Made by a program: the position numbers and the translations under genes. A stretch of DNA of 64,000 nt. Origin: Chloroflexota bacterium. GTDB lineage: Bacteria > Chloroflexota > Dehalococcoidia > JACPPY01. Of this stretch, positions 9,083 through 26,126 are shown one piece after another. The stretch covers positions 37,458 through 101,457 of the forward strand of contig JACPPY010000072.1 in NCBI GenBank assembly GCA_016190755.1. The letters run 5' to 3'. The first letter of the stretch is position 1, and each line of letters begins with the position of its first letter. The notes under the pieces were generated by a model that searched no databases, was not told the origin of the DNA, and was given only the letters and a program-made list of their open reading frames with translations.

Positions 9083-10927
9083 ATGATCGATTCCAAGCTG
9101 AACGGAGGGTACACGGGGCGGGTGCTTTGGGTAAATCTGACGAAAGGTCAGACTGCTGCAGAGGCCCTGGACGCGGATGTTGCCCGGAAGTTCATCGGTG
9201 GGGCAGGGCTGGCATCCAGGATCATATGGGACAAGACGGATAAGGACACTGAGGCCCTTTCACCGGAGAACCTACTGATTTTCGCCGTCGGCCCTCTCAC
9301 CGGGACCAGCGTTCCGATGAACAGCCATTACACAGTTGCCGCTATCTCTCCCCTGACAGGGATCTGGGGTGAGGGACACTCGGGCGGCACATGGGCCTAT
9401 CAGCTCAAGCATGCCGGCTTCGATGCCGTAGTTTTTAGCGGCAAGGCGTCGAAGCCGGTCTATCTGTTCATAAATAACGGCAAGACCGAGATAAGGGATG
9501 CGGGCCGTGTCTGGGGCAAGGGCGTTTTCGATACCAGCGATATGCTCCAGGCCGAAACCGACCCGAAGGCCAGCGTGGCCTGTATCGGCCCGGCTGGAGA
9601 AAAGCTGGCACGTATTGCCTGCATCATTAACGAGGGCAGGATAGGCCGCGCCGCTGCCCGTTGCGGGCTGGGCGCTGTCATGGGCTCGAAGAACCTGAAG
9701 GCTGTGGTCGTGCGCGGGACAGACCCCCTCAAAGTTTATGACCGGGAAGGTTTGCACGACAGCGCGGCAAGGTTCAACCAGCGCTCGGCGGAGCAGCTCA
9801 AGGATTGGAAGTCCACTGCCAGGAGGCGGAGCTCCCTTGCAGCTTCGTGGCAGAAGGGCAGGCTGAATTTCCAGAACTACCTGGGCAATGACCTGCCGGG
9901 TTTTAAGGACAGTTTCATCGAGACCCTGCAGCAGGGCGAAGAGTACTATTGCACCACCTGTCCCAGAAGCCATGCCGAATGCAGGTTGGTAAACGGGCGC
10001 CGCCGTGTTCTCTGGGAAGCCATGGGACCTCTGGGTGCGCAGTGCTGCATAGCCGATGTCAAGGCACTTCAGGAAGCCCAGGACCTTTGCCAGGACTACG
10101 GAGTCGATACGATATCCGCGGGTGGCGTCATGTCTTTCGCTATCGAGGTGTTTGAGAAAGGCCTGATAACCCGGGCGGACACGGATGGCGTCGTCCTCGG
10201 ATGGGGCAATGCCCCGGGGATGCTCCAGATGCTGAAGAAAACGCTTTGCCGGGAGGGTTTCGGCTCGGTGCTGGCGGAGGGTGTGCGCAGGGCTGCTGAG
10301 CAGATTGCCCCCGTCGCAATGGAATATGCCGTGCATGTCAAAGGCATGGAGCTCGCTGCCCATAATCCGAGGGGCAGCAACGCCATCGCCCTGGAAAACG
10401 CCACCGCCAACCGCGGAGCGGACCATCTTTCCGCCAACGCATGCATGGACACGGTTGACTATCCCGAATTGGGTATTTCAGCGAAGGAACACCTCATCGG
10501 GAGTCGGTTCAAGGTGGAAGGCCAGGGGCAGATGGTGGCCCGGCTCCAGGACTTTTCGTGCCTCATCGATTCGGTGGTCATCTGCAAACTCATCATCCAG
10601 CCGGGACCGATGGGGCTGCAGCCCGGCGACCTGGTTGAATGGATGAACCTGGCGACGGGCTGGGATATGGACCTCAAAGAGCTGATGACCGCTGGCGAAA
10701 GGATATTCAACCAGCAGCGCCTGATCAACACGAGGAAAGGCATCAGCCGCAAGGACGATTTCCTGCATCCCAGGCTACTCACGCATAAGCTGGGCGGCAC
10801 TATTGACTGCGCACAGCACCTGCCCCCGATAGGTGAACTGTTGAACCAGTATTACGCCAACCGCGGTTGGAGTGAAGAGGGCCTGCCTACTAATGACAAA
10901 CTGGCAAGCCTTGGCCTCAGAGCCTAG
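9083..10927 (+). CDS. aor: Aldehyde:ferredoxin oxidoreductase family protein (tungsten/molybdopterin)
   Basis: 614 aa. AOR N-terminal domain signature (GGYTGRVLWVNLTKG...FIGGAGLASRIIWD...FAVGPLTGT). Length and C-terminal domains fit AOR-family enzymes. Good RBS. Confidence 0.9.
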   Translation: MIDSKLNGGYTGRVLWVNLTKGQTAAEALDADVARKFIGGAGLASRIIWDKTDKDTEALSPENLLIFAVGPLTGTSVPMNSHYTVAAISPLTGIWGEGHSGGTWAYQLKHAGFDAVVFSGKASKPVYLFINNGKTEIRDAGRVWGKGVFDTSDMLQAETDPKASVACIGPAGEKLARIACIINEGRIGRAAARCGLGAVMGSKNLKAVVVRGTDPLKVYDREGLHDSAARFNQRSAEQLKDWKSTARRRSSLAASWQKGRLNFQNYLGNDLPGFKDSFIETLQQGEEYYCTTCPRSHAECRLVNGRRRVLWEAMGPLGAQCCIADVKALQEAQDLCQDYGVDTISAGGVMSFAIEVFEKGLITRADTDGVVLGWGNAPGMLQMLKKTLCREGFGSVLAEGVRRAAEQIAPVAMEYAVHVKGMELAAHNPRGSNAIALENATANRGADHLSANACMDTVDYPELGISAKEHLIGSRFKVEGQGQMVARLQDFSCLIDSVVICKLIIQPGPMGLQPGDLVEWMNLATGWDMDLKELMTAGERIFNQQRLINTRKGISRKDDFLHPRLLTHKLGGTIDCAQHLPPIGELLNQYYANRGWSEEGLPTNDKLASLGLRA

Positions 10928-11002
10928 AGGCGGGATTTGGGGCAGTCGGAATCTGCCGTCGGGCCTTCGAACTAGCGCAAAAAAGCGATCATTTCGTCGG
11001 GG

Positions 11003-12991
11003 GTGAAGTCATTGAATGGTCCTGGAACATTCAATAAGTACCCTGCCCTCTTCTCGCCTATCAAAATCGGTGGTCTGGAGCTCAAAAACCGCATCGTGAT
11101 GCCCCCGATAACCACTAACTTTCCAGACAAGGGCTTTGTCACCGACCGCCTCATAAGCTACTATGCCCGCCGGGCAGAGGGCGGAGCCGGGCTCATTATC
11201 ATCGAGGACGCCATCATCGACCCGCCTCGCGGCTGCTATCACTATGAGGACATTCATATCGACAACGATGTCTATTTGCCCGGACTCAGAGCTCTGGCCA
11301 GCGCCGTGAAATCCGCTGGGGCCAGTGTGGCGGCGAACCTCAGCCACGGTGGGAGAAAATCGGGTGTGGTGGAAGACGGACAGCTCATACGCAGCCACGG
11401 GACCATTCCAGTGGCTCCCTCCGCAATCGCGGACCCTTTTCCCGGTTACATCGTCCCATCAGAGTTGACCATTGATGAGATAGAAGAGTTGGAGGAGAAG
11501 TTCGTCTCGGCTGCGGCGAGGGCATGCGAGGCAGGCTTCGACGTTATCTCCCTTCACGCCGCCCATATGTACCTCATCGATCAGTTCCTTTCGCCAATAT
11601 CGAATCACAGGGACGACCTCTACGGCGGAGACCTGGATGGCAGGATGCGGTTCCTTCTCGAAATCATAGCTAAGGTACGCGCCAGGGCAGGAAGCGTGCC
11701 CCTCATGGTGCGTATTGACGGGCAGCAGTATATGCCCGGGGGCATAACGGTCGAAGAGGCCTCGGAGATCGCGCGAAGGTTGGAAGCGGCTGGAGTGGAC
11801 TGCCTTAGCGTTTCCATCGACCCTACCGGCCTCGGCTTCCTGCCCCTCGACCCGAGTGTCCCGCAGGCGGCCTCAAGCTGGCGGGGACCATGGGCCGCCA
11901 TGGTACATCTTGCCGAGGCAGTGAAGCGGGCAGTATCTATCCCCATGATGACGGCCAATCGTATCGTTACGCCCGCGCTGGCCGAGGAGATACTCGTCCA
12001 CGGCAAGGCCGACCTCATAGGCATCGGCAGGGGGCTTATCGCCGATCCGGACTGGCCCGCGAAAGCGCTTGAGGGGAGGGAGACCTCTATCCGGCACTGC
12101 ATAGGTTGCCTGCGCTGCCTGGATGTGACCAGGGACAGGGAAGCGTTAAGGTGCACCGTTAACCCGGCAGCCGGACGGGAGAATGATTCCCAGATAAATC
12201 CCTCCAGCCGTCGGCGGAAGGTCTTCGTCGCCGGCGCCGGGCCCGCAGGAATGGAGGCAGCGCGGGTAGCAGCCTCACGCGGACATGAAGTCCGCCTTTT
12301 TGAGAAAGACACTCTCGGCGGTCAGCTAAAACTGGCCAGCATCCCGCCCGGGAAAAAAGACCTGGGCCTGCTGCTGGACTATGAGATGGGGCAGCTTGCC
12401 TGCCTCGGTGTAAACATAGAGATGCATGAGCTAACGGCTGAAACCATAGTACAGGGAAGGCCGGATGCGGTGGTGGTGGCGGTCGGGTCGCTGTCCGGCA
12501 GGTTAATGGTCCCGGGTTCGGAATCCGGGAACGTATTTGATATCAGGCAGGTGCTGAAAGGAGAAGTTGAGCCAGGTAAGAGGGTGGTGATCATCGGCGG
12601 AGACCAGGCAGGGGCGGAAACCGCCGAATACCTCGCGCAAAAAGGCAGGATAGTGACTATCGTCCATGAAGGTAGACAGATTGCTGGCGACATGTCCGGT
12701 GTCTGCCGGTTAGAGCTACTGGAGCGCCTGAGGCGCCTGGGGGTCAGGACGATGGTCAAGACCAAGGTCAATATGGTATCTCCGGAAGGGGTCATCGTCG
12801 AAACGAGAGGAGAAAGGCGAACGCTCTCGGCGGATACGGTGGTGACAGCTCTGCCACCCGAGCCTGAAGGAGCCCTTGCCGGACAGCTCCGGGGAATGAA
12901 CGTCAAAGTCCATGTTATCGGCGATTGCTCGAAGATAGCCGGGCTGGCCGGCGCCATCGAGGACGGATTCAGGGCAGGCTTGAAGGTCTAG
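11003..12991 (+). CDS. OYE-like FMN / 4Fe-4S / FAD-NAD(P) oxidoreductase (2,4-dienoyl-CoA reductase / enoate reductase family)
   Basis: 662 aa. OYE TIM-barrel motifs (LKNRIVMPPITTNF, HAAHMYLIDQFLSP). Cys cluster HCIGCLRC-x11-C. Two dinucleotide-binding motifs (GAGPAGMEAA, GGDQAGAETAE). GTG start at 11003; TTG 11012 is an alternative. Confidence 0.85.
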   Translation: MKSLNGPGTFNKYPALFSPIKIGGLELKNRIVMPPITTNFPDKGFVTDRLISYYARRAEGGAGLIIIEDAIIDPPRGCYHYEDIHIDNDVYLPGLRALASAVKSAGASVAANLSHGGRKSGVVEDGQLIRSHGTIPVAPSAIADPFPGYIVPSELTIDEIEELEEKFVSAAARACEAGFDVISLHAAHMYLIDQFLSPISNHRDDLYGGDLDGRMRFLLEIIAKVRARAGSVPLMVRIDGQQYMPGGITVEEASEIARRLEAAGVDCLSVSIDPTGLGFLPLDPSVPQAASSWRGPWAAMVHLAEAVKRAVSIPMMTANRIVTPALAEEILVHGKADLIGIGRGLIADPDWPAKALEGRETSIRHCIGCLRCLDVTRDREALRCTVNPAAGRENDSQINPSSRRRKVFVAGAGPAGMEAARVAASRGHEVRLFEKDTLGGQLKLASIPPGKKDLGLLLDYEMGQLACLGVNIEMHELTAETIVQGRPDAVVVAVGSLSGRLMVPGSESGNVFDIRQVLKGEVEPGKRVVIIGGDQAGAETAEYLAQKGRIVTIVHEGRQIAGDMSGVCRLELLERLRRLGVRTMVKTKVNMVSPEGVIVETRGERRTLSADTVVTALPPEPEGALAGQLRGMNVKVHVIGDCSKIAGLAGAIEDGFRAGLKV

Positions 12992-12998: not shown

Positions 12999-14390
12999 GT
13001 GAAGGCAATGAGTGTACTGGACGATATCATAAGCAATATACTCGAAACCCCGTTTGAGAAATTCGCCACTGCGACTGTCGAAAACGCCAAAAAGCGCATC
13101 ATAGATGTTGTCGGCTGTTCCGTTGCAGGGGCAAAGGTGGAGGCCTTTCCCGTAATCCTTGACCTCGTCAGGGACTGGGGTGGGAGGGCGGAAAGCGTGC
13201 TGCTGGCCTGCCCGGGAGTGCGTGTCCCGGCCCAAAACGCGGCCTTCGCCAACAGCATTCTGGCCAGCGCATTCGACTACGATCCTCTCCATCCGCTGGT
13301 CGAGAACAGAGTCTATGTCGGGCATATCAGCGGGACAACAATACCCGCAGCCCTGGCAGTCGCCGAGCAGCAGGCGTTGAGTGGCGAAGAACTGCTGGTG
13401 GCGCTGATAGTCGGGGAAGACCTCGTCGCGAGGACCATAGATGCCCTGGACTACAAGTCTTCCCGGGGAGCGACCACGGGATGGAGCGCTGAGAACAGCA
13501 TAGCTATTCTCGGGACGGCCGCCAGCGCGGGGAGGATGTACTCTCTCAATGCGGCCCAGATGCGGAACGCTCTGGGCATCGCGGTAAACCAGGCCGGGGG
13601 GAGCGTGCAGACCCTGCACGAAAAGTCGCACTGTTACAAGCTGAACCAGGGTTTCGGGGCGAAAAACGGTATTGTGTCAGCACAGTTGGGACGGCAGGGA
13701 TTCGCGGGCCTCGAAGACCCCCTCTTCGGTGCGTATAGCTATTTTGCTTTGTTTTCAAGGGAGTACCGTGCAGAGTCGTTGACCAGGGACCTTGGCAAGA
13801 AGTTCTATGCCGATTCTGTTATTAAGCGTTACCCTTCATGCCTGGGAAACAGCGCCGCCATAAGCTGTGCTCTGGAGTTGGTGCAAAAACACGCCTTCGA
13901 GCCAGCCGACATCGATAGTGCGACCGTGAGGGTATTCGTGAAATCAGGTCATGATGTGCTCTTCAAGCCCTTTGAGGTGGGCGATGACCCCCACATGGAC
14001 GCCAACTGGAACATGGCCTATAACATCGCCAACGTGTTGCTCCGAAAGTGCGTCAAAATCGAGCATGTGACGCCCGATTTCGTCCGCGATCCTCAGGCCC
14101 TGGACCTGGCCGGAAGGGTGGAGGCTGTAAAGGTATCCTCCCCCGAATACCCGAAGGTCGAACTGATCGTCAGGCTCAGGAACGGGCAGGAGTTGGTTAA
14201 CCGCTCCGATGAAAGTGATGAAGACCTACCGTTCCGCCCTCTGAGCATGGAGGCCGTCAAGGAGAAATGTCGCAGCAACATCGCCTTCGGGAGAGGAAAG
14301 GTAAGCCCAGGGGTTGAGCAGGCCTTGCGCATGCTCGAAAACCTGGAGGATGTGCGGGATATCCGCGTGGTTACGGGTCTATTGGGCTGA
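12999..14390 (+). CDS. MmgE/PrpD family protein (2-methylcitrate dehydratase-like)
   Basis: 463 aa. The N-terminal helical domain pattern (FEKFATATVENAKKRIIDVVGCSVAG) and the length are typical of MmgE/PrpD. Starts 8 nt after the upstream gene. Confidence 0.8.
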   Translation: MKAMSVLDDIISNILETPFEKFATATVENAKKRIIDVVGCSVAGAKVEAFPVILDLVRDWGGRAESVLLACPGVRVPAQNAAFANSILASAFDYDPLHPLVENRVYVGHISGTTIPAALAVAEQQALSGEELLVALIVGEDLVARTIDALDYKSSRGATTGWSAENSIAILGTAASAGRMYSLNAAQMRNALGIAVNQAGGSVQTLHEKSHCYKLNQGFGAKNGIVSAQLGRQGFAGLEDPLFGAYSYFALFSREYRAESLTRDLGKKFYADSVIKRYPSCLGNSAAISCALELVQKHAFEPADIDSATVRVFVKSGHDVLFKPFEVGDDPHMDANWNMAYNIANVLLRKCVKIEHVTPDFVRDPQALDLAGRVEAVKVSSPEYPKVELIVRLRNGQELVNRSDESDEDLPFRPLSMEAVKEKCRSNIAFGRGKVSPGVEQALRMLENLEDVRDIRVVTGLLG

Positions 14391-14400
14391 AGCCCTGACT

Positions 14401-15795
14401 CTAGCCCACGCCGAGATTTTTCTTGTAGTCCGGGTCATATTCGTTGATTATGCCCAGCTCTATTTGCTTGGCGGGGGGCACGACGCCCCAGCCGGATGAA
14501 GCCATACGGTCGGCCTCGGTAGGCTTTGTGCCGATAACCCCTTCCTTAGCAAGCTTTTCGACCTCATCTTCCGAAAGGCCCAGAAGATTGACCAGGATAT
14601 CACGGTTATCCTGACCAAGGCGCGGGGCGGCACTTAGCTCTTGGGGTTCGGCTCCAGGCGTCTTCCAGGCCGCTCCGGGATAGATTCGGGTTCCCATGTC
14701 CTCGTTTCCGGCCGCCTGAGGATGCCGGACCTTGTGGAAGTAGCCTCGTTGGTTCAGGTGCGTATCAAGATGTAGGTCCCGTGAATTGAGAACGGCGGCT
14801 GCGGGCACGCCGGCTTTTTGCAGGAGCTCCATTACCTCGCGGTTCTCATGTTCCATGGTCCAGCCCTCGATATGGGCGTCAAGCTCGTCCTGGTTATGCC
14901 ATCGCGATGGCCCGGATGAGAATTTCTCGTCTTTGGTCCAGGCAGGGCTGCCAAGCGCCCGGGACAGGGCATCCCACTCTTTGTCTGAGGTTACTGCGAT
15001 AGTCACCCATCTGTCATTACCCTTGCATCGGTAGCACCCGTGTGGCGCCATGAACTGGTGGCGGTTTCCCATGCGCATGGGCTCTTTGCCGTTGACCGAG
15101 TGCTCCACGATCGCTTCCCCCAGATGCATGGCGGCCGCTTCCATCTCCGAGATATCTATCCACTGCCCTTTGCCGGTGTGGTGGCGATACTCCAGGGCCA
15201 TGAGGATGCTCAGGGTAACGTACTCGGCCCCAATCCAGTCCGACACCGGGGCTATCATTTTCACCGGCGGCCCACCCCTGTACCCGGTAACATGCGCGAG
15301 GCCGGTCATCGCATCCACCGCCAGGCCCCAGGCTGCCCAGTCGGCCCATGGGCCGCTGTCGCCGTAGCCGCTGGCGGAGACCATGATGATATCAGGTTTG
15401 ATTTTTGCCAGGGACTCCCAGTCCAGCCCCAGATTCCGCTTGACCCGCGGAGACCAGTTCTCCGCGACAACATCGCTTTTTTTGACCAGCTCCTTGAAAA
15501 TCTCAATACCCCGGGGTTTGGAAAGATCCAGCGCGAGGGACTTCTTATTGGTATTGATGGAATTGAATCGCGCTGACTTGTTCCAGAACTCGCCGGACAT
15601 CTTATTATCGGCATAGCTGCCGAAACGGGTTACGTCCGGCCGGCCGGCTGACTCGATACGGATGACCTCCGCACCGAAGAGCGCCAGGTTGCGGGTGGCA
15701 ACGGGCACGGCCACCGCGACGCCCAGGTCCAGAATCCTGATTCCCTTGAGCGCGGGTTTTTTCAATTCAGTACCCCCAGCTCCCTTGATACTCAT
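14401..15795 (-). CDS. Family III CoA-transferase (CaiB/BaiF/Frc type), paralog 2
   Basis: 464 aa. N-terminal signature LKGIRILDLGVAVAVPVATRNLALFGAEVIRIES. Convergent with the PrpD-like gene; only 10 bp separate the stops. Confidence 0.85.
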   Translation of the reverse strand: MSIKGAGGTELKKPALKGIRILDLGVAVAVPVATRNLALFGAEVIRIESAGRPDVTRFGSYADNKMSGEFWNKSARFNSINTNKKSLALDLSKPRGIEIFKELVKKSDVVAENWSPRVKRNLGLDWESLAKIKPDIIMVSASGYGDSGPWADWAAWGLAVDAMTGLAHVTGYRGGPPVKMIAPVSDWIGAEYVTLSILMALEYRHHTGKGQWIDISEMEAAAMHLGEAIVEHSVNGKEPMRMGNRHQFMAPHGCYRCKGNDRWVTIAVTSDKEWDALSRALGSPAWTKDEKFSSGPSRWHNQDELDAHIEGWTMEHENREVMELLQKAGVPAAAVLNSRDLHLDTHLNQRGYFHKVRHPQAAGNEDMGTRIYPGAAWKTPGAEPQELSAAPRLGQDNRDILVNLLGLSEDEVEKLAKEGVIGTKPTEADRMASSGWGVVPPAKQIELGIINEYDPDYKKNLGVG

Positions 15796-15817
15796 TCACC
15801 AATCCAAGACAGCCTGG

Positions 15818-17026
15818 CTAAATAGCCCCCAGGTTGCGCAGCCGAACGATGTCCTCGCCGGAGAATCCGAGAAGCCCGGAATAGACCACAGCGTTATGCT
15901 GCCCCAGCAGCGGCGCCGGGGACTCGATCCGGGCGGGTGATGCCGCCATTTTGAAAGGCGCTCTAGGCATGGTGATCTTCCCGGCGTGCGGGTGCGTCAG
16001 AGTAGCAAAGTATTCCCGTGCCAGCAACTGCTCGCAGGTGCTCAGGTCTTGTATCGTCTGCACCATACCGAAAGGGAACCGCCAGGCCTGCGCTGTGGAG
16101 ACCAGTTCCCGTGTTTTCCACTTGGCGAACTCACGGTTGAGAATATCGAGAAGCTCCTGCGCGTTTACATCCCGCCCGGTTGGGTTGTCGAACTTGGGCA
16201 CATCGAGCTCGGGGCAGTTCATCATCGTTGAGAAGGACTTCCAGTCGGTGTACCCGTAGAACACCGGAGCCAGATAACCATCGGCGGTCTTCATGAGGAC
16301 TTCGTAGAGCCGGGGGCTCTTCGGGAGCCGCCTCATCACTGCGCCGGCATACGGGTAAAGCGCAGCCAGGAAATTAGTTATAGGCATCATGCTTTCCATG
16401 ATCGAGACATCGACAAACTGGCCCGAATTATCCTCATGGTTGGCATATACTGCGGCGACGGTCGCCGAAGCGGCATACCCGCCGGCGAAATACTGCCCCT
16501 GAAGCAGGCCGTGCTTCAAAGGGGAGCCTTCGTAGGTACCCAGCATGTACATGATGCCGCTTAATGCGTACTCTATGAGCTCGGTGGCGCGGTAATCACG
16601 ATACGGTCCCGTGGCGCCGAAATTGGAGATGGAGACCATGATGAGTCGCGGATTGAGCTTTTTCAGGTACTCATAGCCCAGGCCGAGCTTCTGGAGGTAG
16701 CCCGGCCTGAAGCTTTCGACGAGAACATCCGCCCAACCGACCAGCCGCTTCAGTATCTCTTTGCTATCGCTGCTCTTCAGGTCAAGCGTGACGCTTTTCT
16801 TGTCCGTGTTCAAATACAGGAAGAGCGCGCTGGCTTCGGGATCGGGCTGTCCGTTAACAGGTGCGCCTATCAGCCGTGCGCCGTCACCGGTGCCCGGTTT
16901 CTCGACCTTGATAACGTCTGCGCCGTATGTGGCGAGGAGCTTCGTGCAGTAGGGCCCAGCAACGTAATGCGTGAGATCCAGGACCTTCAGCCCGGATAGG
17001 GCGCCTTTTTCAGAGATCAACAACAC
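15818..17026 (-). CDS. Family III CoA-transferase (CaiB/BaiF/Frc type), paralog 1
   Basis: 402 aa. N-terminal signature LSGLKVLDLTHYVAGPYCTKLLATYGADVIKVEKPGTGD. GTG start. Lies 22 bp upstream of the second transferase. Confidence 0.85.
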   Translation of the reverse strand: MLLISEKGALSGLKVLDLTHYVAGPYCTKLLATYGADVIKVEKPGTGDGARLIGAPVNGQPDPEASALFLYLNTDKKSVTLDLKSSDSKEILKRLVGWADVLVESFRPGYLQKLGLGYEYLKKLNPRLIMVSISNFGATGPYRDYRATELIEYALSGIMYMLGTYEGSPLKHGLLQGQYFAGGYAASATVAAVYANHEDNSGQFVDVSIMESMMPITNFLAALYPYAGAVMRRLPKSPRLYEVLMKTADGYLAPVFYGYTDWKSFSTMMNCPELDVPKFDNPTGRDVNAQELLDILNREFAKWKTRELVSTAQAWRFPFGMVQTIQDLSTCEQLLAREYFATLTHPHAGKITMPRAPFKMAASPARIESPAPLLGQHNAVVYSGLLGFSGEDIVRLRNLGAI

Positions 17027-17165
17027 CCCTTTCGGAGGCCAATATTCGTAGATCCCATATGGGGTTGGTAGCCGGCGTCATACTCGCACAGCCTCAATGG
17101 AGGCTGATCCCAATACCTTCAGCAGCGACGTAGTTTAACACAATGGCCTTGGCCGGTCTTGTTTC

Positions 17166-19613
17166 TTAGACTTTCGCTACGGCCTCTTCGAGGGCCTTCT
17201 CCATCATCCCAGTCCCCCAGGACAGATGCTGGGTGCGCATGATGATCTGGTTCTGCAAATCGGTCGGAAGCTCCACGAAATAAGCGCTGTACCCTGCGAT
17301 GCGGACAATGACATTCTTGTAGTTTTCGGGGTGCTTCTGAGCTTCGAGCAATGTCTTGCGGTCCCAGATGTTGAACTGGATATGGAAGTGGCCCAGGTCT
17401 GCCCAAGTCTTGAGATAGGCCATGAATATTTCTTTATTCGGACCTCTCAGCAGGTCTGCGCTGAATTTCTGGTTGAACAAATGGTTATGGCTGCGCAGCG
17501 GGTCTATCTTGGAGGTAGACTTGAGCACAGCGGTCGGGCCGAGCATATCCTGGCCGGCAACCGGGGATATGCTGCCGTCATTGAAGGGCTGGCGGGCTTT
17601 GCGTCCATCAGGGGTGGCCGCCGTCTGGTCCCCATAGCCGATGTAGCCGGCCCCCGCGCTGCCGTCGAATGTGATTGGGCCGCCCCAGTAGTTCTTGACC
17701 TTCTTCAGGCGGCTGTTCAGGCGGTAGTGGATATCCCTGGCGATAAGGTCCACATAGTCATTGTCGTTGCCGAACTTGGGGGCTTTGAGGCAAAGCTGCC
17801 GCAGGTCTTCGTAACCTTCCCAATTCGCCTTAAGCGCCTTGACCATATCCGGCAGGATGAGCCTTTTCTCGTCGAAGACGAGCTTTCTGATGGCCGCCAG
17901 AGAGTCGGCGACCGTCGTCCCGCCCAGGTTGCCCATCGTCTCCTTTGGTATGTAGCTCCAACCCTTGCAGTCGCGTGCCTGCTCGATGCAACCGTCCAGC
18001 ATGGCTGAGAAGAATGGTCGCGGCAGGTACTCTTCGTAGAGCGCATTGCCGACCTCGTTTATCTGCGCCAGCTTTTCGGCGAAGAACCCTGCCTGGGTGA
18101 TAAAAGCGTCGATTATCTCATCGACATTGCGGAAGGTAGCCGGGTCGGGCGTGGGATAGCCTATCATCTCTCCGGTGAGCATGCATTTGCCCTGGTTGAG
18201 CGCCAGCTCAAAGCACTTTGCCAGCACCAGGTGACCGACATGGGCGCGGTCTGAGAGGTTCTTACCCGGCAGCGTCCAGCGTACGCATCCTTCCATCGCG
18301 TAGTCACGGGCGACGTTCAGGGGCACGCCGAACTCCAGCAAGTATGGGACCATCATCTCATCGTTGAACAAGGCCGGGTAGCCGACGCCGGTCGCGATTA
18401 CATCGACGGCCTTGGAGACAAGCTCAGGGTCTATCTTGGGATGATATCTAAGGCAGAGAGATGGCTGAAGTGTCTGCATTTCTTTCGAGGCATCCAAGAC
18501 GATGAAAGACACCTCGTTAGTGACGTCATCGCCTTCCGGCGTGACTCCGCCGATGGTCAGGTTCTGCCACAGACTGCTGGCGCCTATCTGTGAGCCCCAC
18601 ATCGGCGGGTAAAGGTCGCCGCGCTCTTCGAGCTTTATCCACAAGCACTCGACCAACTCCTGCGCCTCTTCCCGGGTTATCCGCCCTTCGCGCTTGTCCT
18701 TCTCGTAGAAAGGATAGAAATCACGGTCGAACCGCCCGGCGCAGCCGTTCATCTGCATCTCGATCGATCGGCTTATTACCGTCACGAGCCAGAAGAACTG
18801 TACCGCTTCATAGAATGTGCGAGGTGGGTTTTCAGGCACCCATTCGCAGATTTCGGCAAGTCGTTCAAGCTCGGCCTTGCGGGACAGGTCGGGATGGGCA
18901 CTGGCCTGCTCACGCGCCAGCTTAGCGAAGCGGTGTGAGAACTTGATCGCCGCCTGGAGCGATATGACGACGGCATCAAGGAAGTTCTTTTTATTCAGGT
19001 ATTCCTTGCCAGGCATCTTCTTATCGGCCTGAACTTCCTTGAGCTTGTCCTGCGCCTCCTGGATAAGGCCTTTGAAGCCCACCTGGAAAAGCTTGCGGAA
19101 GTTGGGTATGCCGGAGCTTGTGCCGTATGACCAGACATGCGCTCCCTTGTAAGCCCAGTAGGGTTTCAGGTCGTCGGGGATAAGGTCTCGTTCCTTTCCT
19201 TGGACCGACTTGTCCTTCCAATACTTGTTAAGCTCGTGGACTTCCTGTCTCTCCGCCTCGGAGAGCATGCCCTTGTACTCGCGGTCGACGGACTTGTCCA
19301 GCCAGCGCCAGTAGCATTCAGGGTAATATGGCAGAGAGGCGGTAGTGGAGGCGTAGTTCCCCGCCAGGAGCTGCCCTTCATCGATGTAAATGGTCATTTT
19401 CCCCAGGATTTTTTCGAGGGCGCGGGCACGGCGCAGCACCATAGGCTGACCTTCGGTCTCTTTGTAGGACTCCGTTACGAGGCGCGCCCGCTCGAGACAG
19501 ATTTTGACGTCCGGGCCATAGGCCACATCGCTCATCTTGGTGTAGCCCTTGGCCACTGAGTGGTAGATTTTGTCTACCATGTTTCGTTTCAGTCCCTGTG
19601 TCCTCTCACTCAT
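17166..19613 (-). CDS. Glycyl radical enzyme (PFL2/glycerol-dehydratase-like superfamily), substrate unknown
   Basis: 815 aa. C-terminal glycyl-radical fingerprint VIVRIAGYSAYFVEL...QNQIIMRTQH (Gly774 codon at 17292-17294). Cys loop GYPALFNDE...VARDYAMEGCVRW (Cys443 codon at 18285-18287). Confidence 0.9.
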   Translation of the reverse strand: MSERTQGLKRNMVDKIYHSVAKGYTKMSDVAYGPDVKICLERARLVTESYKETEGQPMVLRRARALEKILGKMTIYIDEGQLLAGNYASTTASLPYYPECYWRWLDKSVDREYKGMLSEAERQEVHELNKYWKDKSVQGKERDLIPDDLKPYWAYKGAHVWSYGTSSGIPNFRKLFQVGFKGLIQEAQDKLKEVQADKKMPGKEYLNKKNFLDAVVISLQAAIKFSHRFAKLAREQASAHPDLSRKAELERLAEICEWVPENPPRTFYEAVQFFWLVTVISRSIEMQMNGCAGRFDRDFYPFYEKDKREGRITREEAQELVECLWIKLEERGDLYPPMWGSQIGASSLWQNLTIGGVTPEGDDVTNEVSFIVLDASKEMQTLQPSLCLRYHPKIDPELVSKAVDVIATGVGYPALFNDEMMVPYLLEFGVPLNVARDYAMEGCVRWTLPGKNLSDRAHVGHLVLAKCFELALNQGKCMLTGEMIGYPTPDPATFRNVDEIIDAFITQAGFFAEKLAQINEVGNALYEEYLPRPFFSAMLDGCIEQARDCKGWSYIPKETMGNLGGTTVADSLAAIRKLVFDEKRLILPDMVKALKANWEGYEDLRQLCLKAPKFGNDNDYVDLIARDIHYRLNSRLKKVKNYWGGPITFDGSAGAGYIGYGDQTAATPDGRKARQPFNDGSISPVAGQDMLGPTAVLKSTSKIDPLRSHNHLFNQKFSADLLRGPNKEIFMAYLKTWADLGHFHIQFNIWDRKTLLEAQKHPENYKNVIVRIAGYSAYFVELPTDLQNQIIMRTQHLSWGTGMMEKALEEAVAKV

Positions 19614-19652
19614 CTCTTGCCTCCTGAAAGTGATTCCTGACGACTCTCCCAG

Positions 19653-20501
19653 CTAAAGCTTGAACACTTTTACCGCATTATCATGGAGCAGTTTCTTTTT
19701 GACGTCTTCCTTAAGGCCAAGGTCATCAATCTGCTGTAGCATCTTGTCCCAGGGAAGTCCGTTGCTGCCCCAAATGACCTTATCCTGACCCCGGGTGTTG
19801 ATAAACTTAACGACGTTCGGCTCGAGGTATTTCGGCATATGGGCGTCGACGCCGAAATAGATATTGTCGTACTTATAGCATATCGCAATAAGCTCCTCGC
19901 ACCAAGGATAACCGGTATGCGCGCCGATTATCTTGAGGCTGGGGAAATCGAGCGCAATGCGGTCCAGGTAGATGGGCCGGCCGTATTCGCTGTACATAGC
20001 CTCAAGCACGTACCCGACCTGTAGCGCCACCGGAACACCAAGCTCCTGGCACTTGGCATAAAGGGGATACATTGTCCTGTCATCTATGGCTGTATCGAAA
20101 CCGTAGACATGGACATATACTCCCTTAAAGCCATGGTCTTTCACCAGCCATTCGATTTCCTCAAGGCTTTCTTTGATCCTGAAGGGATTATAAGAAGCCA
20201 GGCCGGCAAAGCGGTCGGGATGTTTTTCCGTGTACTGAAGCACCTCTTCCGCCTTGGTATCGACATACCAGCGCTTGTTCCAGTGAGAGAACATCCTGAA
20301 CTCGCTGATAAGGACCTTCTCCACGTTTGCCTTGTCCATGGCCTCGATCATCTTTTCGATGCTGGGGTATGACGGCGGTTTGCCTCCAAGCGAGGCTTGC
20401 ATCCGGCAGATAATCTCCTGCTTGCCGGCCACATCCACCCTATCAACCCACTCCGGCGTTGTGACCGAGTTAAGAAAATCGATGGCCTTTATCTGTGGCA
20501 T
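19653..20501 (-). CDS. Amidohydrolase-2 family TIM-barrel protein (ACMSD/LigW/LigI-like)
   Basis: 282 aa. Family-like blocks GAHTGYPW and VIWGSNGLPW. The N-terminal strand reads AIDFLNS rather than the usual D-x-H-x-H, so the metal site may be atypical. Confidence 0.7.
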   Translation of the reverse strand: MPQIKAIDFLNSVTTPEWVDRVDVAGKQEIICRMQASLGGKPPSYPSIEKMIEAMDKANVEKVLISEFRMFSHWNKRWYVDTKAEEVLQYTEKHPDRFAGLASYNPFRIKESLEEIEWLVKDHGFKGVYVHVYGFDTAIDDRTMYPLYAKCQELGVPVALQVGYVLEAMYSEYGRPIYLDRIALDFPSLKIIGAHTGYPWCEELIAICYKYDNIYFGVDAHMPKYLEPNVVKFINTRGQDKVIWGSNGLPWDKMLQQIDDLGLKEDVKKKLLHDNAVKVFKL

Positions 20502-20555
20502 TCGCTATCCCTTCTATGCAGTTTTCGCAATCTGTTCTCAGGCCTTGGGCGGTGC

Positions 20556-21341
20556 CTATACCATAGCGTATCCGCCGTCGACGCTCAGAGTCTGCCCGGT
20601 AATAATGCCTGCGGCGGTGTCCGAGGCCAGGAAGACCACCGCGCTGGCGATATCCTTGGGCGCGGCCCCTTTACGCAGCGGATAGGCTTTCAGGGCTTTT
20701 TCGAGTACCTCGGGCGGCACAGGTGGTTCCTTCCAGGCGCTCTTGGCGCCCACCTCCTCCGGTTTTTCAGGTGCTACCAGGGAGGGGCAGACAACGTTCA
20801 CGCGTATATTGAACCTGCCGGCCTCTCGGGCGATTGCTTTCGAAAAGGCGATGACCGCCCCCTTACAGCCGGAGTAGACTGCTTCGCGGGCTTCGCCGAG
20901 CCTCCCGGCATCAGAACCGATATTAACGATCGCCCCACCGCCGTTCTGGGACATGTGCGGGAGAACAGCGCTTATCCAGTTCAGGTCCGTCTTGAAGTTG
21001 ATGGTAAGAAGCCTGTCCCACAGCTCCGGGTTAGTCTCAGTGAAAAAGGCTATCCGGTCCCAACCGACGTTGTTCACCAGGACATCCACCTTGCCGAACT
21101 CACCGAGGACCTTTTTAAGGGCAGCAGCTACGGCGTCATGGCTGGTGGCATCCGCGAGCACCACCATGGCCTTGACCCCCAGGCTGCGCGCCTTCTCGGC
21201 GGCGCGGTTCGCCTGTTCTTCGTCGATATCGGCTATGGCTACGTTAGCGCCCTCTTTTGCGAAGGCCAGCGTGATACCGTAGCCAATGTTTGAAGCCCCG
21301 CCGCTGATGATGACGTTCTTGCCTTTTAGTCCCAGGTCCAT
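20556..21341 (-). CDS. Short-chain dehydrogenase/reductase (SDR)
   Basis: 261 aa. Cofactor motif ISGGASNIGYG, NNVG, and catalytic YSGCKGA (YxxxK). Confidence 0.9.
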   Translation of the reverse strand: MDLGLKGKNVIISGGASNIGYGITLAFAKEGANVAIADIDEEQANRAAEKARSLGVKAMVVLADATSHDAVAAALKKVLGEFGKVDVLVNNVGWDRIAFFTETNPELWDRLLTINFKTDLNWISAVLPHMSQNGGGAIVNIGSDAGRLGEAREAVYSGCKGAVIAFSKAIAREAGRFNIRVNVVCPSLVAPEKPEEVGAKSAWKEPPVPPEVLEKALKAYPLRKGAAPKDIASAVVFLASDTAAGIITGQTLSVDGGYAMV

Positions 21342-21368: not shown

Positions 21369-23429
21369 CTAATTGGCTCGTGCGATACGGCACGGCACTC
21401 CTTTTAGCCTGGGGAACCCGGAAATAGGATCCACTGGAGCATTGTCAGTCAAGAGATTGATGTTGGCATCCGCCCATCCGTGAGTGGCACTGAGCACGCC
21501 CGGCAGAATGTCTTCGGTGACCAGGGCTTTAACCGTGATTCTGCCGTTTTTGGTTTCGAGGATAGCGGACTTGCCGTTCTCAATGTTGTACTTGCTGGCG
21601 GTTTCGGGATGAATTTCTACCGCGTGCTCAGGGAGAATCTTGCGCAGCCTGGCAACCTGGCGCAACTGAGAGTGACAGAAAGGAAGTTTACGCGAGCCGG
21701 TCACCATGATCAACGGATAGGAGCCTCCGTTGCCGCCCGCGGCTGGCTGAGGCTCGCGGTAGGTTGGCAGCGGGTCATGCCCCAACTCTTCGAGGGTCTT
21801 GGAATATACCTCCATCTTGCCGGAAGGCGTGGGGAATCCACGGGTTTCATACTCCCTGAGCTTGACCGTGCCGTAGGTTACGCCGCCTGGGTCCTGTTTC
21901 GATAGCTTCTCTATTGACAGTCCCGAAGGCTCGAAAATATAGTCGATAGCCTCGTCAGCGGTTTGCCATGGGAAGTACTCTCCATAGCCCATACGCTTGG
22001 CGAGTTCGAGGTAGAAGGTCATGTCCGAGCGGCTTTCCTCATAAGTCACTATCTTTTTCTGCAACATAACGAACGGAAGTCCGTGCAGCATACGATAAAA
22101 GTCAAAGATGACGTTTCTCTCGAAGCAGCTGGCGGCGGGCAGCACAATGTGCGCCATCTCCGTGGTCCGGGTTGGGAAGAGGTCCATGGCCACAAGGAAG
22201 TCTAGGCTTTGCAGTGCTTCAGTCACTTTCCTGGAGTTGGGCCATGTCAACGCCAGGTTGGAGCCGGAAACAATGGCCGCCCTCACAGGGTAAGGCTTGC
22301 CATGGAGTATTGCATCCGGGAGGAGCATTGATTGCCCTTCACCCTCACCGATAAGCTTTCCCCAGACACCGTAGAATAGCGGGTACTTGTCTACGCCCAG
22401 AGGCTTGTGCTTCAAGAGATTTTCAAGCCTTACAGGCTTATGCCTGATGCTGGAAGTGGTGATGAATCCTCCCGGTACCTCGAAATTACCCGTGATAGCC
22501 TGTAGAATACAGCGCGCCCGGGAGAGCTGGACTCCCGAGCCTTGCTCCTCGAGAGTGTTGCTATAGGTGGCGATACACGCGGGCTTGATAGTGGCGAAGT
22601 CGCGGGCAATCTGTCGAATTTGTTGGGCGGGCACCCCAGTGAGCTCTTCAACCTTCTCCGGTGCGTAAGCCTTGATGTGTTCGGTGAGCTTGTCGAAGCC
22701 CAGCGCCCATTTGACGACGAAGTCCTTATCGTAGAGTCCTTCGCTGATAATGACGTTGAGCAACCCGAGCATAAGGGCGAGGTCGGTGCCCGGGCGTGGG
22801 GCGACATAGATGTCCGCTTTCTTCGCCAGGGCGGTGCGTCGCGGGTCGATGACAATCAGCCTGGTGCCTTTTTGCTTTAGCTGCAAGATGTCTCTAGCGA
22901 GGAACGGTTGTGAGTCGGAAGGGTTGGTCCCCCAGACCAGGATGCAGCGTGCGTTCTTCGGGTCGGGCAGCCCGTACTTCCCGAGAGTCAAGATATCCCC
23001 GATGATGAACGCGCGCCAGCACATGCTGTCAACCGAGAAGACACTTGGGGTACCATAGGCATCGCAAAAGCGGCGCACAAAAGTGATCGTGGCGCTGCCC
23101 TGCGTCAGAATGGGTTGTCCGAAACACACAGCCAGCGCGGTGGGGCCGTATTTTTCTTTAACCTTGCTAAGGTTGGCGGCGACGGTATCCAACGCCTCGT
23201 CCCAGGAGATCCTCTTGAAACCGTTGCCTTCCTTGCGCAAAGGAGATTTTATACGGTCCGGGTGGTAGATCATGCTCGCGGCATTGCGGGCACGGGCGCA
23301 TATCATACCCTTGTTTAAGGGATGCTCGGTCATCCCTTCCACTTTTTCTATTCGTCCGTCTGGACCAACAATAACGTTGAGACCACAACCAAGTCCACAG
23401 ATGCCGCAGGCTGTCTTGATCGTTTCCAA
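21369..23429 (-). CDS. Molybdopterin oxidoreductase (MopB superfamily), cytoplasmic, single subunit
   Basis: 686 aa with a TTG start. N-terminal FeS motif C-x2-C-x3-C-x28-C (ACGICGLGCG...GMICARA). No twin-arginine signal. C-terminal molydopterin dinucleotide-binding beta-barrel-like end (ILPGVLSATHGW). Confidence 0.85.
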   Translation of the reverse strand: METIKTACGICGLGCGLNVIVGPDGRIEKVEGMTEHPLNKGMICARARNAASMIYHPDRIKSPLRKEGNGFKRISWDEALDTVAANLSKVKEKYGPTALAVCFGQPILTQGSATITFVRRFCDAYGTPSVFSVDSMCWRAFIIGDILTLGKYGLPDPKNARCILVWGTNPSDSQPFLARDILQLKQKGTRLIVIDPRRTALAKKADIYVAPRPGTDLALMLGLLNVIISEGLYDKDFVVKWALGFDKLTEHIKAYAPEKVEELTGVPAQQIRQIARDFATIKPACIATYSNTLEEQGSGVQLSRARCILQAITGNFEVPGGFITTSSIRHKPVRLENLLKHKPLGVDKYPLFYGVWGKLIGEGEGQSMLLPDAILHGKPYPVRAAIVSGSNLALTWPNSRKVTEALQSLDFLVAMDLFPTRTTEMAHIVLPAASCFERNVIFDFYRMLHGLPFVMLQKKIVTYEESRSDMTFYLELAKRMGYGEYFPWQTADEAIDYIFEPSGLSIEKLSKQDPGGVTYGTVKLREYETRGFPTPSGKMEVYSKTLEELGHDPLPTYREPQPAAGGNGGSYPLIMVTGSRKLPFCHSQLRQVARLRKILPEHAVEIHPETASKYNIENGKSAILETKNGRITVKALVTEDILPGVLSATHGWADANINLLTDNAPVDPISGFPRLKGVPCRIARAN

Positions 23430-23688
23430 GGGAAGTACCTCCGCGTCCTGCTGAAATGGGCAAGACAGGGCCTAATAGGCGAAGTTCATATTCTGAACAA
23501 TCCTCAGCCCAATATACAAAACCAAGCGATCTCTTGTCAAAAGAGGTCAGTAACCCCAACAAAGCAGCGTTTCCGGGTATGTGCAACCTCCGGATGCACA
23601 TTCTTGCACTGGGCCTCCCGAGCCCAGAATAATACCGTTCAGTCCACGGTGAAAACGACTTTAGTCTCATACAAAGAGATTGCACGGT

Positions 23689-23883
23689 ATAGTACACCAG
23701 CTTGTCCACGTTGTACCTCGTGGCAAAGCCTGGGGAAGTCCTGTCCTTGTACTGCTGCACCCGCTGCACCAGATTGGTGGTGACTCCGGTGTAGAGTACT
23801 CTGTTGGTCTTGTTGGTCACGATGTAGACATAGGAGTGGCAGTAAACAGAGTATATTAGAGCACTGCCCGGTGAGGGATAGCA
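23689..23883 (-). pseudogene. Truncated GIY-YIG nuclease family gene (N-terminal half only)
   Basis: The frame is open from TTG 23883. It encodes ...YCHSYVYIVTNKTNRVLYTGVTTNLVQRVQQYKDRTSPGFATRYNVDKLVYY, which covers the GIY and YIG strands. After LVYY the expected AI.REK catalytic half is absent in all frames. The 217-aa track ORF (23167-23820) is read-through into non-coding DNA and the MopB gene. Confidence 0.55.
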
Positions 23884-24337: not shown

Positions 24338-25288
24338 CTACTTAGTGGGTAGCGTCTGAGCGTGGGTCAGCACATCTACGACGTCCTGGAGGCTCCACCC
24401 GGTTACCAATCCTGATGGCATGGCCGTGCCAGGCTGTCCGCTACGTACCTTGTGTATGAATTCCCACGGGTTGTCGAGAGCCAACGTGCCCACGTACTCC
24501 GGCTCTTCCGCCGAGCCGAAGTTCAACTGCTTCCCGTCCGAGCCATGGCAGGCAGCACAGACGCTGCTGAAGAGCTGCGACCCACGGGCCGCGTTGCCCC
24601 CAATGGGCTTCTTGGTAGCGTAGTCTATGTACGGGTTCACATTCACCAGGCTCTGGCTGAGAAAGGCGGCCAGGTCAGTTTGGGATTGCCCATCGAGCAG
24701 CTTAGAGAAGTCGTGGCGGTAATCGGTGCTCCCCTTCAGTATCTGGACAAGCTGTTCTTTAGACTTGGAAACGCCGGCGTCGTAGACCCCCACAAACCCG
24801 GTGTAGTGTGAGCCCTTGCTATAGGCGCCACCCTTGCCCTTATAATCCCAACCATGGCATTCTTTACAGCGCCAGGTGTCTGTACCCTTCCGAGTGTTGG
24901 TGGTCTGAAGTGCCCATAGCGCTTGATCTGCCGCTGGCGTGGCGGCCTTGGTCTCCTTTATCCAGTTGTCGTACAGCCGGCCTCCACGAGCGACGCTCGC
25001 GGCAGGTGCCGGTGTTCCTTGCAACGCCTCCGAGATGAGAGACTTGATCTCTTGAGTTGAGGGCTTAGGCCCTGCTGGACCTTGCTGACCCTGTGGTCCT
25101 TGGGCTCCTGCTGGCCCCACCTGTCCTTGTAGGCCTGCCGCCCCCGCTGGCCCGACGGATCCCGCCTGTCCTGCTGGCCCCGCTTGTCCGGTTGGACCTT
25201 GTGGGCCGGTGCAAGCGGCCGCGGCCAACCCTAAGGCGAGCAAGCCACCCAGTGCTGAGAGCAGGAATAACTTGCCTCTCTTTCCCAT
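24338..25288 (-). CDS. Diheme c-type cytochrome lipoprotein with N-terminal collagen-like (G-X-Y)16 repeat
   Basis: Track ORF trimmed to the second ATG (25288), which is preceded by AAGGAGG. Signal peptide with lipobox LAAAAC. Sixteen uninterrupted GXY triplets (GPQGPTGQAGPAGQAGSVGPAGAAGLQGQVGPAGAQGPQGQQGPAGPK, 25064-25207). Two CxxCH motifs (CKECH, CAACH). Confidence 0.8.
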   Translation of the reverse strand: MGKRGKLFLLSALGGLLALGLAAAACTGPQGPTGQAGPAGQAGSVGPAGAAGLQGQVGPAGAQGPQGQQGPAGPKPSTQEIKSLISEALQGTPAPAASVARGGRLYDNWIKETKAATPAADQALWALQTTNTRKGTDTWRCKECHGWDYKGKGGAYSKGSHYTGFVGVYDAGVSKSKEQLVQILKGSTDYRHDFSKLLDGQSQTDLAAFLSQSLVNVNPYIDYATKKPIGGNAARGSQLFSSVCAACHGSDGKQLNFGSAEEPEYVGTLALDNPWEFIHKVRSGQPGTAMPSGLVTGWSLQDVVDVLTHAQTLPTK

Positions 25289-25387
25289 ATTGATAGCCTC
25301 CTTCATTCACGGGAATGACCGCTGTTGCGGCCGGGTAATATCCTAATTACCTGAGGCAAGTTCGGGAATAGGTAGTCGTTGGGGATA

Positions 25388-25449: not shown

Positions 25450-26109
25450 CTACGAGTCCAGGGGTATAAGGCCTTTCCGTATGGCGTACTTGACTAGTTG
25501 CGCGCGATTGTGCATGCCCAGCTTGCCCATGATATTGTCACGATGGCTCTGCACGGTATGCAGGCTGATGCACAATGTCTCGGCGATCTGCGCAGTGGTT
25601 TTGCCCTCGGCGATCAACTGTAGGACCTCTCTCTCACGCTCCGTCAGGCCATCGCAACCGCCCGAGTCCTCGCCATTATCAACACGACGCAAATAGTCTA
25701 CCAGGAGCTTTTTGGCGACGGGAGGAAAAAGGTACACTTCGCCTCTATATACCGACCGCACCGCCGTGAGCAAGTCTTGAATATCCGCTCCTTTCAGAAC
25801 GTATCCCGATGCGCCCACCCGAACAGCCTGGAACAGATAGTCCTCCCTATCGTGCATGGTCAGTATCAGCACCTGTACACCGGGAACCTGTTTCTTGATT
25901 GCCTGCGTAGCCTCCAGGCCACCAAGCCCGGGCATGCCGATGTCCATCAGCACAACATCGAACGAGCCCGTCCCTGCTTTTGCGACGGCCTCGTCACCTG
26001 TTCCCGCCTCATCGACAACCTGCATGTCAGGCTGGGCGTTCAGCAGGCCTACTATTCCCCGGCGAATTAGTGTGTGGTCATCAGCCACTAGGATGCGAAT
26101 CTTTTCCAA
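25450..26109 (-). CDS. NarL/LuxR-family response regulator
   Basis: 219 aa. Receiver domain (ILVADDH...VLMDIGMPG). LuxR-type HTH (LTEREREVLQLIAEGKTTAQIAETLCISLHTVQSHR). Confidence 0.9.
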   Translation of the reverse strand: MEKIRILVADDHTLIRRGIVGLLNAQPDMQVVDEAGTGDEAVAKAGTGSFDVVLMDIGMPGLGGLEATQAIKKQVPGVQVLILTMHDREDYLFQAVRVGASGYVLKGADIQDLLTAVRSVYRGEVYLFPPVAKKLLVDYLRRVDNGEDSGGCDGLTEREREVLQLIAEGKTTAQIAETLCISLHTVQSHRDNIMGKLGMHNRAQLVKYAIRKGLIPLDS

Positions 26110-26126
26110 CTGCCTCTGCTCCTCTC

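Follow-up and report, generated by a model that had tools for sequence, protein, structure and literature searches.

A predicted single-subunit clade of glycyl radical enzymes, with arginine at the eliminase glutamate position, that is sister to the X-succinate synthases

Introduction

Glycyl radical enzymes (GREs) perform some of the hardest anaerobic reactions. Every characterized GRE eliminase and isomerase keeps a CXE motif, in which the Glu two residues after the thiyl radical Cys (position Cys+2) is bonded to the substrate hydroxyl (PMC13450708). X-succinate synthases (XSS), the fumarate-adding enzymes that serve as markers of anaerobic hydrocarbon degradation in metagenomic surveys, lack that Glu, and all characterized XSS carry β and γ [4Fe-4S] subunits, with the β subunit of benzylsuccinate synthase (BSS) being required for turnover (PMC13450708). 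One carboxylate of fumarate is bound by Arg508 of BSS and Arg492 of MASS, each located at Cys+15, and the backbone NH of Gly512 of BSS also contacts fumarate (PMC12358834). Among the decarboxylases, HPAD and IAD have Glu at Cys+2 and HPAD also has a γ subunit, PAD has Gln484 at Cys+2 and an essential Trp495 at Cys+13, and AAD is without an accessory subunit (PMC13450708). Unannotated GRE clades are already known to exist, and whole clades, as well as the Archaeoglobus fulgidus enzyme, remain unassigned or untested according to a 2026 review (PMC13450708). Here we analyze a GRE gene within a 64,000-nucleotide stretch of a Chloroflexota bacterium (contig JACPPY010000072.1, positions 37,458 to 101,457), hereafter the window. 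An earlier note, made from the letters of the window, had pointed out that the GRE carries Arg where eliminase-type GREs carry Glu and that neither small subunits nor an activase are encoded nearby. What is new here is a GRE related to XSS whose predicted catalytic loop is both distinct and conserved and for which no accessory subunits were detected.

Results

The GRE gene occupies positions 17166..19613 on the minus strand of the window, begins with ATG, and encodes a protein of 815 amino acids (aa); the identical protein on record is a hypothetical protein of a Chloroflexi metagenome-assembled genome (MAG), with the NCBI locus tag HYX87_07650. Pfam models for a PFL-like domain (9.3e-176) and for Gly_radical (PF01228; 6.8e-26) matched the open reading frame (ORF). 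The glycyl radical site, Gly774 (GGG; 17292..17294, minus strand), lies in the sequence RIAGYSAYF, which conforms to an RVxG[FWY]-type glycyl motif, and the codon positions of Gly774 and Cys443 are those given in the earlier note. The Cys loop, E441-G-C443-V-R445, is encoded at 18279..18293 (minus strand), with the thiyl Cys443 at 18285-18287 (TGC) and Arg445 at 18279-18281 (CGC). The best match in the PDB was the B12-independent glycerol dehydratase (GDH) 1r8w (E 1.2e-141), and phmmer against PDB chains aligned YAMEGCVRW with YGIIGCVEP of GDH without gaps, such that Cys443 coincided with Cys433 and Arg445 with Glu435. Moreover, Cys443 fell on Cys493 of BSS in a MAFFT alignment. The earlier note had recommended alignment to structurally characterized GREs as a check on the loop register, and the two alignments together indicate that Cys443 was correctly named as the thiyl Cys and that Arg445 sits at the position of the eliminase Glu. 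Residue 442 is Gly, consistent with the statement that the Cys-Cys pair of PFL is missing, and the protein contains no other Cys in a C-x-E loop that might have been the thiyl site instead. AlphaFold modeling had also been recommended, and an AlphaFold2 model built from an alignment of the clade described below (pLDDT 89.9, pTM 0.91) matched PFL2-type GRE structures, including GDH and BSS, at template modeling (TM) scores of 0.86 to 0.90 in Foldseek searches of the PDB (0.90 to both 1r8w and 4pkc), a range that does not discriminate among classes. We conclude that the model confirms the ten-stranded β/α barrel fold of GREs and nothing beyond the fold.

Arg at Cys+2 is widespread among relatives of the window protein. 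Homologs were counted among its best 120 database matches, which were 47-56% identical to it, bore generic names only, and came from MAGs of Chloroflexota, Thermodesulfobacteriota, and Nitrospinota and from many metagenomes. The prevalent Cys loop was E-x-C-M-R-W (83 homologs with Arg at Cys+2), followed by S-N-C-M-S-W (22) and N-N-C-M-[F/Y/L]-P (7). All 78 homologs with Glu at Cys−2 also had Arg at Cys+2, another two with Arg at Cys+2 had Asp at Cys−2, and Glu at Cys+2 was found in none of the 120. Trp replaced the usual Pro at Cys+3 in 112 homologs, Cys443, Gly774, and Asp650 were invariant, and Arg456 was present in 118. We note that two homologs, P0084 and P0103, had Arg at Cys−2 and Val or Ala at Cys+2 (I-R-G-C-V-V-W and V-R-A-C-V-A-W), as though either flank of the Cys could provide the guanidinium. 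The covariation of the two positions and the swap of the Arg suggest, by inference only, that the residues at Cys−2 and Cys+2 are neighbors in space. A DNA pattern for E-x-C-M-R-W-x-I-P-G-K matched 51 more loci in metagenome contigs, and the collection comprises at least 112 distinct Arg-loop sequences. The earlier note had said that an assigned function for close homologs with the loop would overturn its case; no homolog sharing the loop had one, and no characterized member of the Arg-loop clade was found in the literature. We conclude that, as judged from the aligned homologs, Arg at Cys+2 is a trait of a large clade and not a chance substitution.

To place the clade relative to XSS, the sequences of BSS (TutD) and GDH were reconstructed from PDB alignments by means of a chimeric query and aligned by MAFFT with 149 clade members. 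A tblastn search for XSS reference sequences in plasmids found none, and the second XSS reference, from Desulfobacula (locus L064), was obtained together with at least 70 outgroup PFL2-type GREs by scanning genome contigs with the clade alignment; the matches listed included no Arg-loop locus. In a neighbor-joining tree of 97 sequences, the clade was monophyletic in 100 of 100 bootstrap replicates and grouped with the XSS in 97 of 100, to the exclusion of GDH and 32 other PFL2-type GREs. Consistent with the tree, the median phmmer scores of the BSS and Desulfobacula XSS queries were 379 and 422 bits, respectively, on the 149 clade members but 274 and 327 bits on 70 other PFL2-type GREs, none of which scored above the clade median with either query. 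The window protein itself scored 387 bits against BSS at approximately 30% identity, whereas BSS and the Desulfobacula XSS scored 964 bits against each other. The A. fulgidus PFL2 (2f3o) also lacks the CXE motif but scored only 350 bits with the window protein. We conclude that, by these trees and scores, the clade is the sister group of the XSS rather than a member of them, and that XSS are its closest characterized relatives.

Part of the fumarate site of BSS has counterparts in the clade. Arg456 of the window protein (Cys+13; 18246..18248, minus strand) aligned with the fumarate-binding Arg508 of BSS, with a two-residue indel accounting for the offset between Cys+13 and Cys+15 in what is a MAFFT correspondence and not a structural one. 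Moreover, the conserved Gly460 aligned with Gly512 of BSS, and most clade members have C-M at the thiyl Cys, as do XSS. At the remaining fumarate contacts of BSS, Ser199 corresponded to Ser/Thr167, Asn615 to Gln or Gly, and Gln707 to Ser/Thr652. At Cys+2, BSS has Ser, in accord with the earlier remark that XSS lack the Glu, and the clade never has Glu. The loop as a whole also differs, being E-x-C-M-R-W in the clade (E-G-C-V-R-W in the window) and L-C-M-S-P-G in XSS, and the toluene-holding residues of BSS lack conserved counterparts. Instead, the positions of the BSS pocket (Tyr197, Tyr381, Phe385, Leu391, Trp613, Ile617, and Val709) are occupied by small or hydrophobic residues that vary among paralogs. 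Finally, at the position of the invariant Asp650 (17664..17666, minus strand), BSS has Thr and GDH has Gly; BSS Gln707 aligns two residues further on. We conclude that, at the level of sequence, the window GRE is an intact ORF that keeps every clade-invariant residue (Gly774, Cys443, Arg456, and Asp650).

The accessory subunits of XSS were not found with the clade. At the control XSS locus in Desulfobacula, Cys-rich ORFs of 58 aa and 68 aa flank the α gene and are followed by an activase. Neither a β or γ homolog nor a conserved Cys-rich small ORF was found in the window or at 53 clade loci, a δ subunit gene being likewise absent, and a six-frame phmmer search of the window with a clade activase and XSS β and γ subunits gave best E-values of only 0.17 to 0.39, upholding the earlier view that small subunits are absent nearby. 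Small ORFs beside the GRE genes of three relatives (83 aa in L001, 84 aa in L002, and 79 aa in L004) were rejected as subunits because they are mutually unrelated and one is a fragment of an ABC ATPase. The claim that the 64 kb encode no CX3CX2C radical S-adenosylmethionine (SAM) protein also held: stop-to-stop frames of at least 80 aa contained the motif only at 44925-45251 (plus strand). There, CRTSCSFC lies in a 109-codon frame on the antisense strand of a longer ORF (44789-45484). The frame does not resemble radical SAM activases, and the occurrence is probably due to chance.

Activases are nonetheless found beside other clade members. TIGR02494-type activases with ferredoxin-like inserts adjoin eight or nine clade GREs, which suggests that the clade can be activated. 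An activase was adjacent in only 6 of the 18 clade loci with at least 6 kb of flanking sequence, and the lack of one in the window is thus typical of the clade. All clade activases were generic TIGR02494 proteins by NCBIfam; the BssD model was not the best match, but the activase of the control XSS locus also fell below the BssD cutoff.

In the window, the GRE gene is part of a co-oriented row on the minus strand that consists of genes for a molybdopterin oxidoreductase, a short-chain dehydrogenase (SDR), an Amidohydrolase_2 protein, the GRE, and two family III CoA-transferases. The intergenic gaps flanking the GRE gene are 39 bp and 139 bp, as the earlier note had given them. Directly downstream of the GRE gene, a 402-aa family III CoA-transferase (15818..17026, minus strand) gave PDB matches of 188 bits to SUGCT and of 153 and 122 bits to the two subunits of benzylsuccinate CoA-transferase, and by these scores it is most similar to dicarboxylate-specific enzymes. 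It is paired with a second, paralogous family III CoA-transferase of 464 aa (14401..15795, minus strand), and the two-subunit BbsEF likewise consists of paired CoA-transferase paralogs. Directly upstream of the GRE gene is the gene for the 282-aa Amidohydrolase_2 protein (PF04909; 19653..20501, minus strand), for which the nearest structure was that of the uncharacterized protein 3irs, and next to it is that for the SDR (20556..21341, minus strand), which was BadH-like by NCBIfam at a score below cutoff. The Fdh-alpha-like molybdopterin oxidoreductase (21369..23429, minus strand) heads the row. Convergent with the row, on the plus strand, are genes for an aldehyde:ferredoxin oxidoreductase (AFOR; 9083..10927), an OYE/FadH-type Fe-S flavoenzyme of the enoate or dienoyl-CoA reductase type (11003..12991), and an MmgE/PrpD-family protein (12999..14390) that weakly matched cis-aconitate decarboxylase and iminodisuccinate epimerase in the PDB at approximately 95 bits.

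Genes for CoA-linked metabolism recur beside clade GREs. Clustering of the neighbors at the 53 clade loci found a carboxyltransferase, usually as a tandem pair directly beside the GRE gene, at 10 loci, acyl-CoA dehydrogenase at 9, SDR at 7, and enoyl-CoA hydratase at 6. OYE reductases (L103, L117, L124, L136, and L137) and Amidohydrolase_2 proteins (L134, L136, L116, L117, and L002) each occurred at 5 loci, and family III CoA-transferase, AFOR (L086, L087, L101, and L139, being directly downstream in the last), SCPx-type thiolase with DUF35, and an NMO-type flavoenzyme each occurred at 4. AMP- and PaaK-type CoA ligases were also among the neighbors, and at least one acyl-CoA neighbor was present in 14 of the 18 well-flanked loci. 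The order of two family III CoA-transferases followed by the GRE, with AFOR nearby, recurred in L101 and L120, and the closest relative of the window GRE (L137) has an OYE reductase and a 2-hydroxyacyl-CoA-dehydratase-like system as neighbors. Likeness to XSS extends to neighboring genes for a CoA-transferase pair, acyl-CoA dehydrogenase, hydratase, SDR, thiolase with DUF35, carboxyltransferase, and a mutase-type protein. L004 combines a CoA-transferase, the GRE, an activase, a methylmalonyl-CoA-mutase-type protein, and a carboxyltransferase, a set that we take to match the steps proposed for alkylsuccinate degradation, and we know of no GRE class other than XSS that is embedded in β-oxidation genes. 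Clade loci differ from XSS in that acid transporters and AFOR are among the neighbors. A TRAP DctPQM transporter is directly upstream of the GRE-activase pair in L138, which also encodes AtuA, ligases, and β-oxidation proteins; several Peripla_BP_6 binding proteins flank the GRE in L001, L122, and L131; and acid-responsive GntR/FCD regulators occur among the neighbors. The transporters and AFOR suggest that the pathway involves an organic acid or an aldehyde at some stage. The benzene-activation cluster (PMC13101534) was considered as a parallel and set aside as not relevant, as it has type III CoA-transferases but no GRE.

Discussion

We favor, at a rough probability of 40%, the reading that the window protein is a single-subunit, XSS-like GRE that would bind a (di)carboxylate and deliver its product to a CoA-dependent pathway. 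The gene product would be a functional, activase-dependent GRE in which an activase encoded elsewhere in the genome generates the Gly774 radical and, from it, the Cys443 thiyl radical. Arg456, the backbone of the Cys loop, and the additional Arg445 would hold a (di)carboxylate, for which fumarate or a close analogue is the likeliest candidate. The thiyl radical would take hydrogen from a second substrate, the pocket residues for which vary between paralogs, the resulting carbon radical would add to the enoate, and the hydrogen would be handed back from Cys443. The neighboring two-subunit family III CoA-transferase would then turn the substituted succinate into a CoA ester, which the SDR, the enoate reductase, the PrpD-like protein, the amidohydrolase, and β-oxidation enzymes would degrade. 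Acid transporters beside relatives raise the possibility that an organic acid serves as the second substrate too, in which case the second Arg would also be explained.

Several observations weigh against XSS-like chemistry. The β and γ subunits, present at the control XSS locus, are missing from the window and from all 53 clade loci examined, and the charged Glu/Arg pair and the Trp sit in the very loop that forms the fumarate oxyanion hole of XSS. Acid/base chemistry, for which XSS have no need, is suggested by the invariant Asp650 near the active site. Taken as a whole, the window protein resembles GDH (476 bits) more than BSS (387 bits), and the tree that joins the clade to XSS is a neighbor-joining tree that was built without PAD, IAD, HPAD, and the A. 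fulgidus PFL2. Finally, AFOR is present at five loci including the window and TRAP or ABC solute-binding proteins at several, and such neighbors suit the import of an acid, or an aldehyde as product, no less well than they suit a hydrocarbon.

Nearly as probable is some other reaction with a carboxylic acid as the substrate. The enzyme might act on a single imported acid without fumarate addition, with Arg456 and Arg445 anchoring the carboxylate or carboxylates and the product passing to AFOR, to CoA activation, or to both; candidate reactions are radical decarboxylation, C-C or C-X lysis, isomerization, and an aldehyde-forming elimination with Glu441 or Asp650 as the base. Such chemistry would make use of the acid/base-capable Glu441 and the invariant Asp650 at or near the active site, would accommodate the AFOR genes of the window, L086, L087, L101, and L139 along with the TRAP and Peripla_BP_6 proteins and GntR/FCD regulators, and is consistent with both the missing subunits and the closer overall similarity to eliminases. 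In addition, Arg435 of PFL, at the position equivalent to Arg456, binds the carboxylate of pyruvate. However, the clade groups with XSS and not with eliminases, and the sister subclades with S-N-C-M-S-W and N-N-C-M-F/Y-P loops lack both Glu441 and Arg445 yet occur in the same gene contexts. Moreover, the β-oxidation, mutase, and carboxyltransferase neighbors suit a succinate adduct well, and no specific substrate can be named for a single-acid reaction. We regard a single-acid reaction as possible, at a probability only a little below that of the XSS-like reading.

The E-x-C-M-R-W clade could also be a new functional class of GRE, with a single subunit and a two-arginine anion site, that catalyzes either the coupling of an imported carboxylic acid to fumarate or a C-C or C-X reaction on a (di)carboxylate without precedent among known GRE classes, a proposal that we put forward tentatively. 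Coupling of an acid with fumarate, if true, would give a tricarboxylate product that suits the PrpD-like neighbor, and the enzyme would be the first hydroalkylase free of accessory subunits.

A decarboxylase of the arylacetate type, like PAD (PhdB) or AAD, that releases a hydrocarbon or phenol is improbable. These enzymes are also single-subunit, PFL2-type GREs without C-x-E, and PaaK-like aryl-acid CoA ligases lie near some clade GREs. However, AAD (7e7l) has a C-V-L loop, with Leu at Cys+2, and both AAD and PAD, the latter compared by its described residues, have Trp at Cys+13 where the window protein has Arg456. NCBIfam models for IAD and HPAD gave 389 and 301 bits (cutoffs of 1100 and 1150), lower than the 513 to 562 bits of eliminase models. 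Moreover, a volatile end product would leave the conserved CoA and β-oxidation neighbors unexplained, and the gene context of PAD and AAD is unlike that of the Arg-loop clade.

That the enzyme is an ordinary 1,2-eliminase or dehydratase, with some other residue standing in for the Glu at Cys+2, is likewise improbable, even though GDH is the best match in sequence and fold (476 bits, TM 0.90), shares the length and single-subunit architecture of the window protein, and belongs to the PFL2/glycerol dehydratase subfamily that gave the best NCBIfam model. The window GRE has C-V-R where CXE is required, replaces His164 and Asp447 of GDH with Ser167 and Ala457, falls far below the cutoff of all NCBIfam equivalog models, and has neither microcompartment nor aldehyde dehydrogenase genes nearby; in addition, the clade was split from 32 eliminase-like GREs with 97-100% bootstrap support. 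A formate lyase such as PFL or TdcE was rejected, as Gly442-Cys443 is not a Cys-Cys pair and the PFL model scored 94 bits against a cutoff of 994. We conclude that, on its aligned residues and model scores, the window GRE is not of an eliminase, PFL, or known decarboxylase type. Least probable of all is a nonfunctional orphan in a genome without an activase: none was found within the 64-kb window, but the ORF is intact with its invariant residues, the gene sits inside a co-oriented row with short gaps, and two-thirds of the well-flanked clade loci likewise lack an adjacent activase while the others have one.

The clade spans MAGs of three bacterial phyla, its sister subclades reach the Asgard archaea, and it is the closest relative of the enzymes by which anaerobic hydrocarbon degradation is surveyed. 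If fumarate addition proceeds without β and γ subunits, the main practical obstacle to hydroalkylase biocatalysts would be removed, because the α subunits of BSS and MASS form inclusion bodies when expressed alone. If another reaction is catalyzed, "assA/bssA-like" calls in sediment metagenomes would be over-interpreted and new GRE chemistry would be there to be found. Either way, the residues E441, R445, R456, and D650 can be put to the test, and the clade loci offer candidates for the partner activases and for the pathway genes.

GREs labeled Ass or Bss in Asgard and Chloroflexi genomes (e.g., Hermodarchaeota; PMC8163825) are likewise single-Cys, CXE-less proteins of sediment MAGs that were annotated by homology only. 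The papers describing them define neither an E-x-C-M-R-W loop nor an absence of small subunits, and membership of the Hermodarchaeota proteins in the same subclade is not confirmed. Among the matches listed, an N-N-C-M-V-P sister subclade occurs in the Asgard MAGs L009, L011, and L013 (Hodarchaeota, Promethearchaeota, and Thorarchaeota), and these proteins are probably of the kind published as archaeal "Ass/Bss".

Multiple GRE genes occur together on several contigs. One 40.9-kb metagenome contig, Ga0209345_10000770, carries three Arg-loop paralogs (L091, L113, and L133), which suggests substrate-diversified copies by analogy with multiple assA genes. A Chloroflexia MAG (L010) has four tandem GRE genes on the plus strand (9878-12307, 13238-15736, 15747-18209, and 18220-20688), of which the first, second, and fourth share the CxE-less loop G-C-V-Y-L-D, and L008 has two adjacent GREs (7369-12400), one with G-C-V-Y-I-E; the GREs of L010 and L008 branch at the base of the clade in the neighbor-joining tree. 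In L004, a 107-aa ORF (9659-9982) directly upstream of the full-length GRE gene repeats the N-terminal part of the GRE, which could reflect partial duplication or an artifact of assembly.

Other features of the window

Scans of the window for tRNA genes and Rfam families gave no matches. The ORF of the molybdopterin oxidoreductase, with a TTG start at 23429, overlaps by approximately 260 bp with a 217-aa ORF (23167-23820, minus strand) that has a weak GIY-YIG match, and one of the two starts within 21369-23820 is probably wrong. Approximately 22 kb from the GRE gene, a β-oxidation trio on the plus strand encodes an enoyl-CoA hydratase (41257-42027), a 3-hydroxyacyl-CoA dehydrogenase (42079-42933), and an SCPx-type thiolase (43022-44290), the link of which to the GRE row is not established. 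A 754-aa ORF (30416-32680, minus strand) encodes a PQQ-type β-propeller dehydrogenase fused to a C-terminal cupredoxin, and a glucose/sorbosone dehydrogenase-like gene (28010-29377) and a two-component system (25450-27995) lie near it. Finally, a 322-aa ORF (24338-25306, minus strand) encodes a collagen-like triple-helix repeat and, at the C terminus, a cytochrome c domain.

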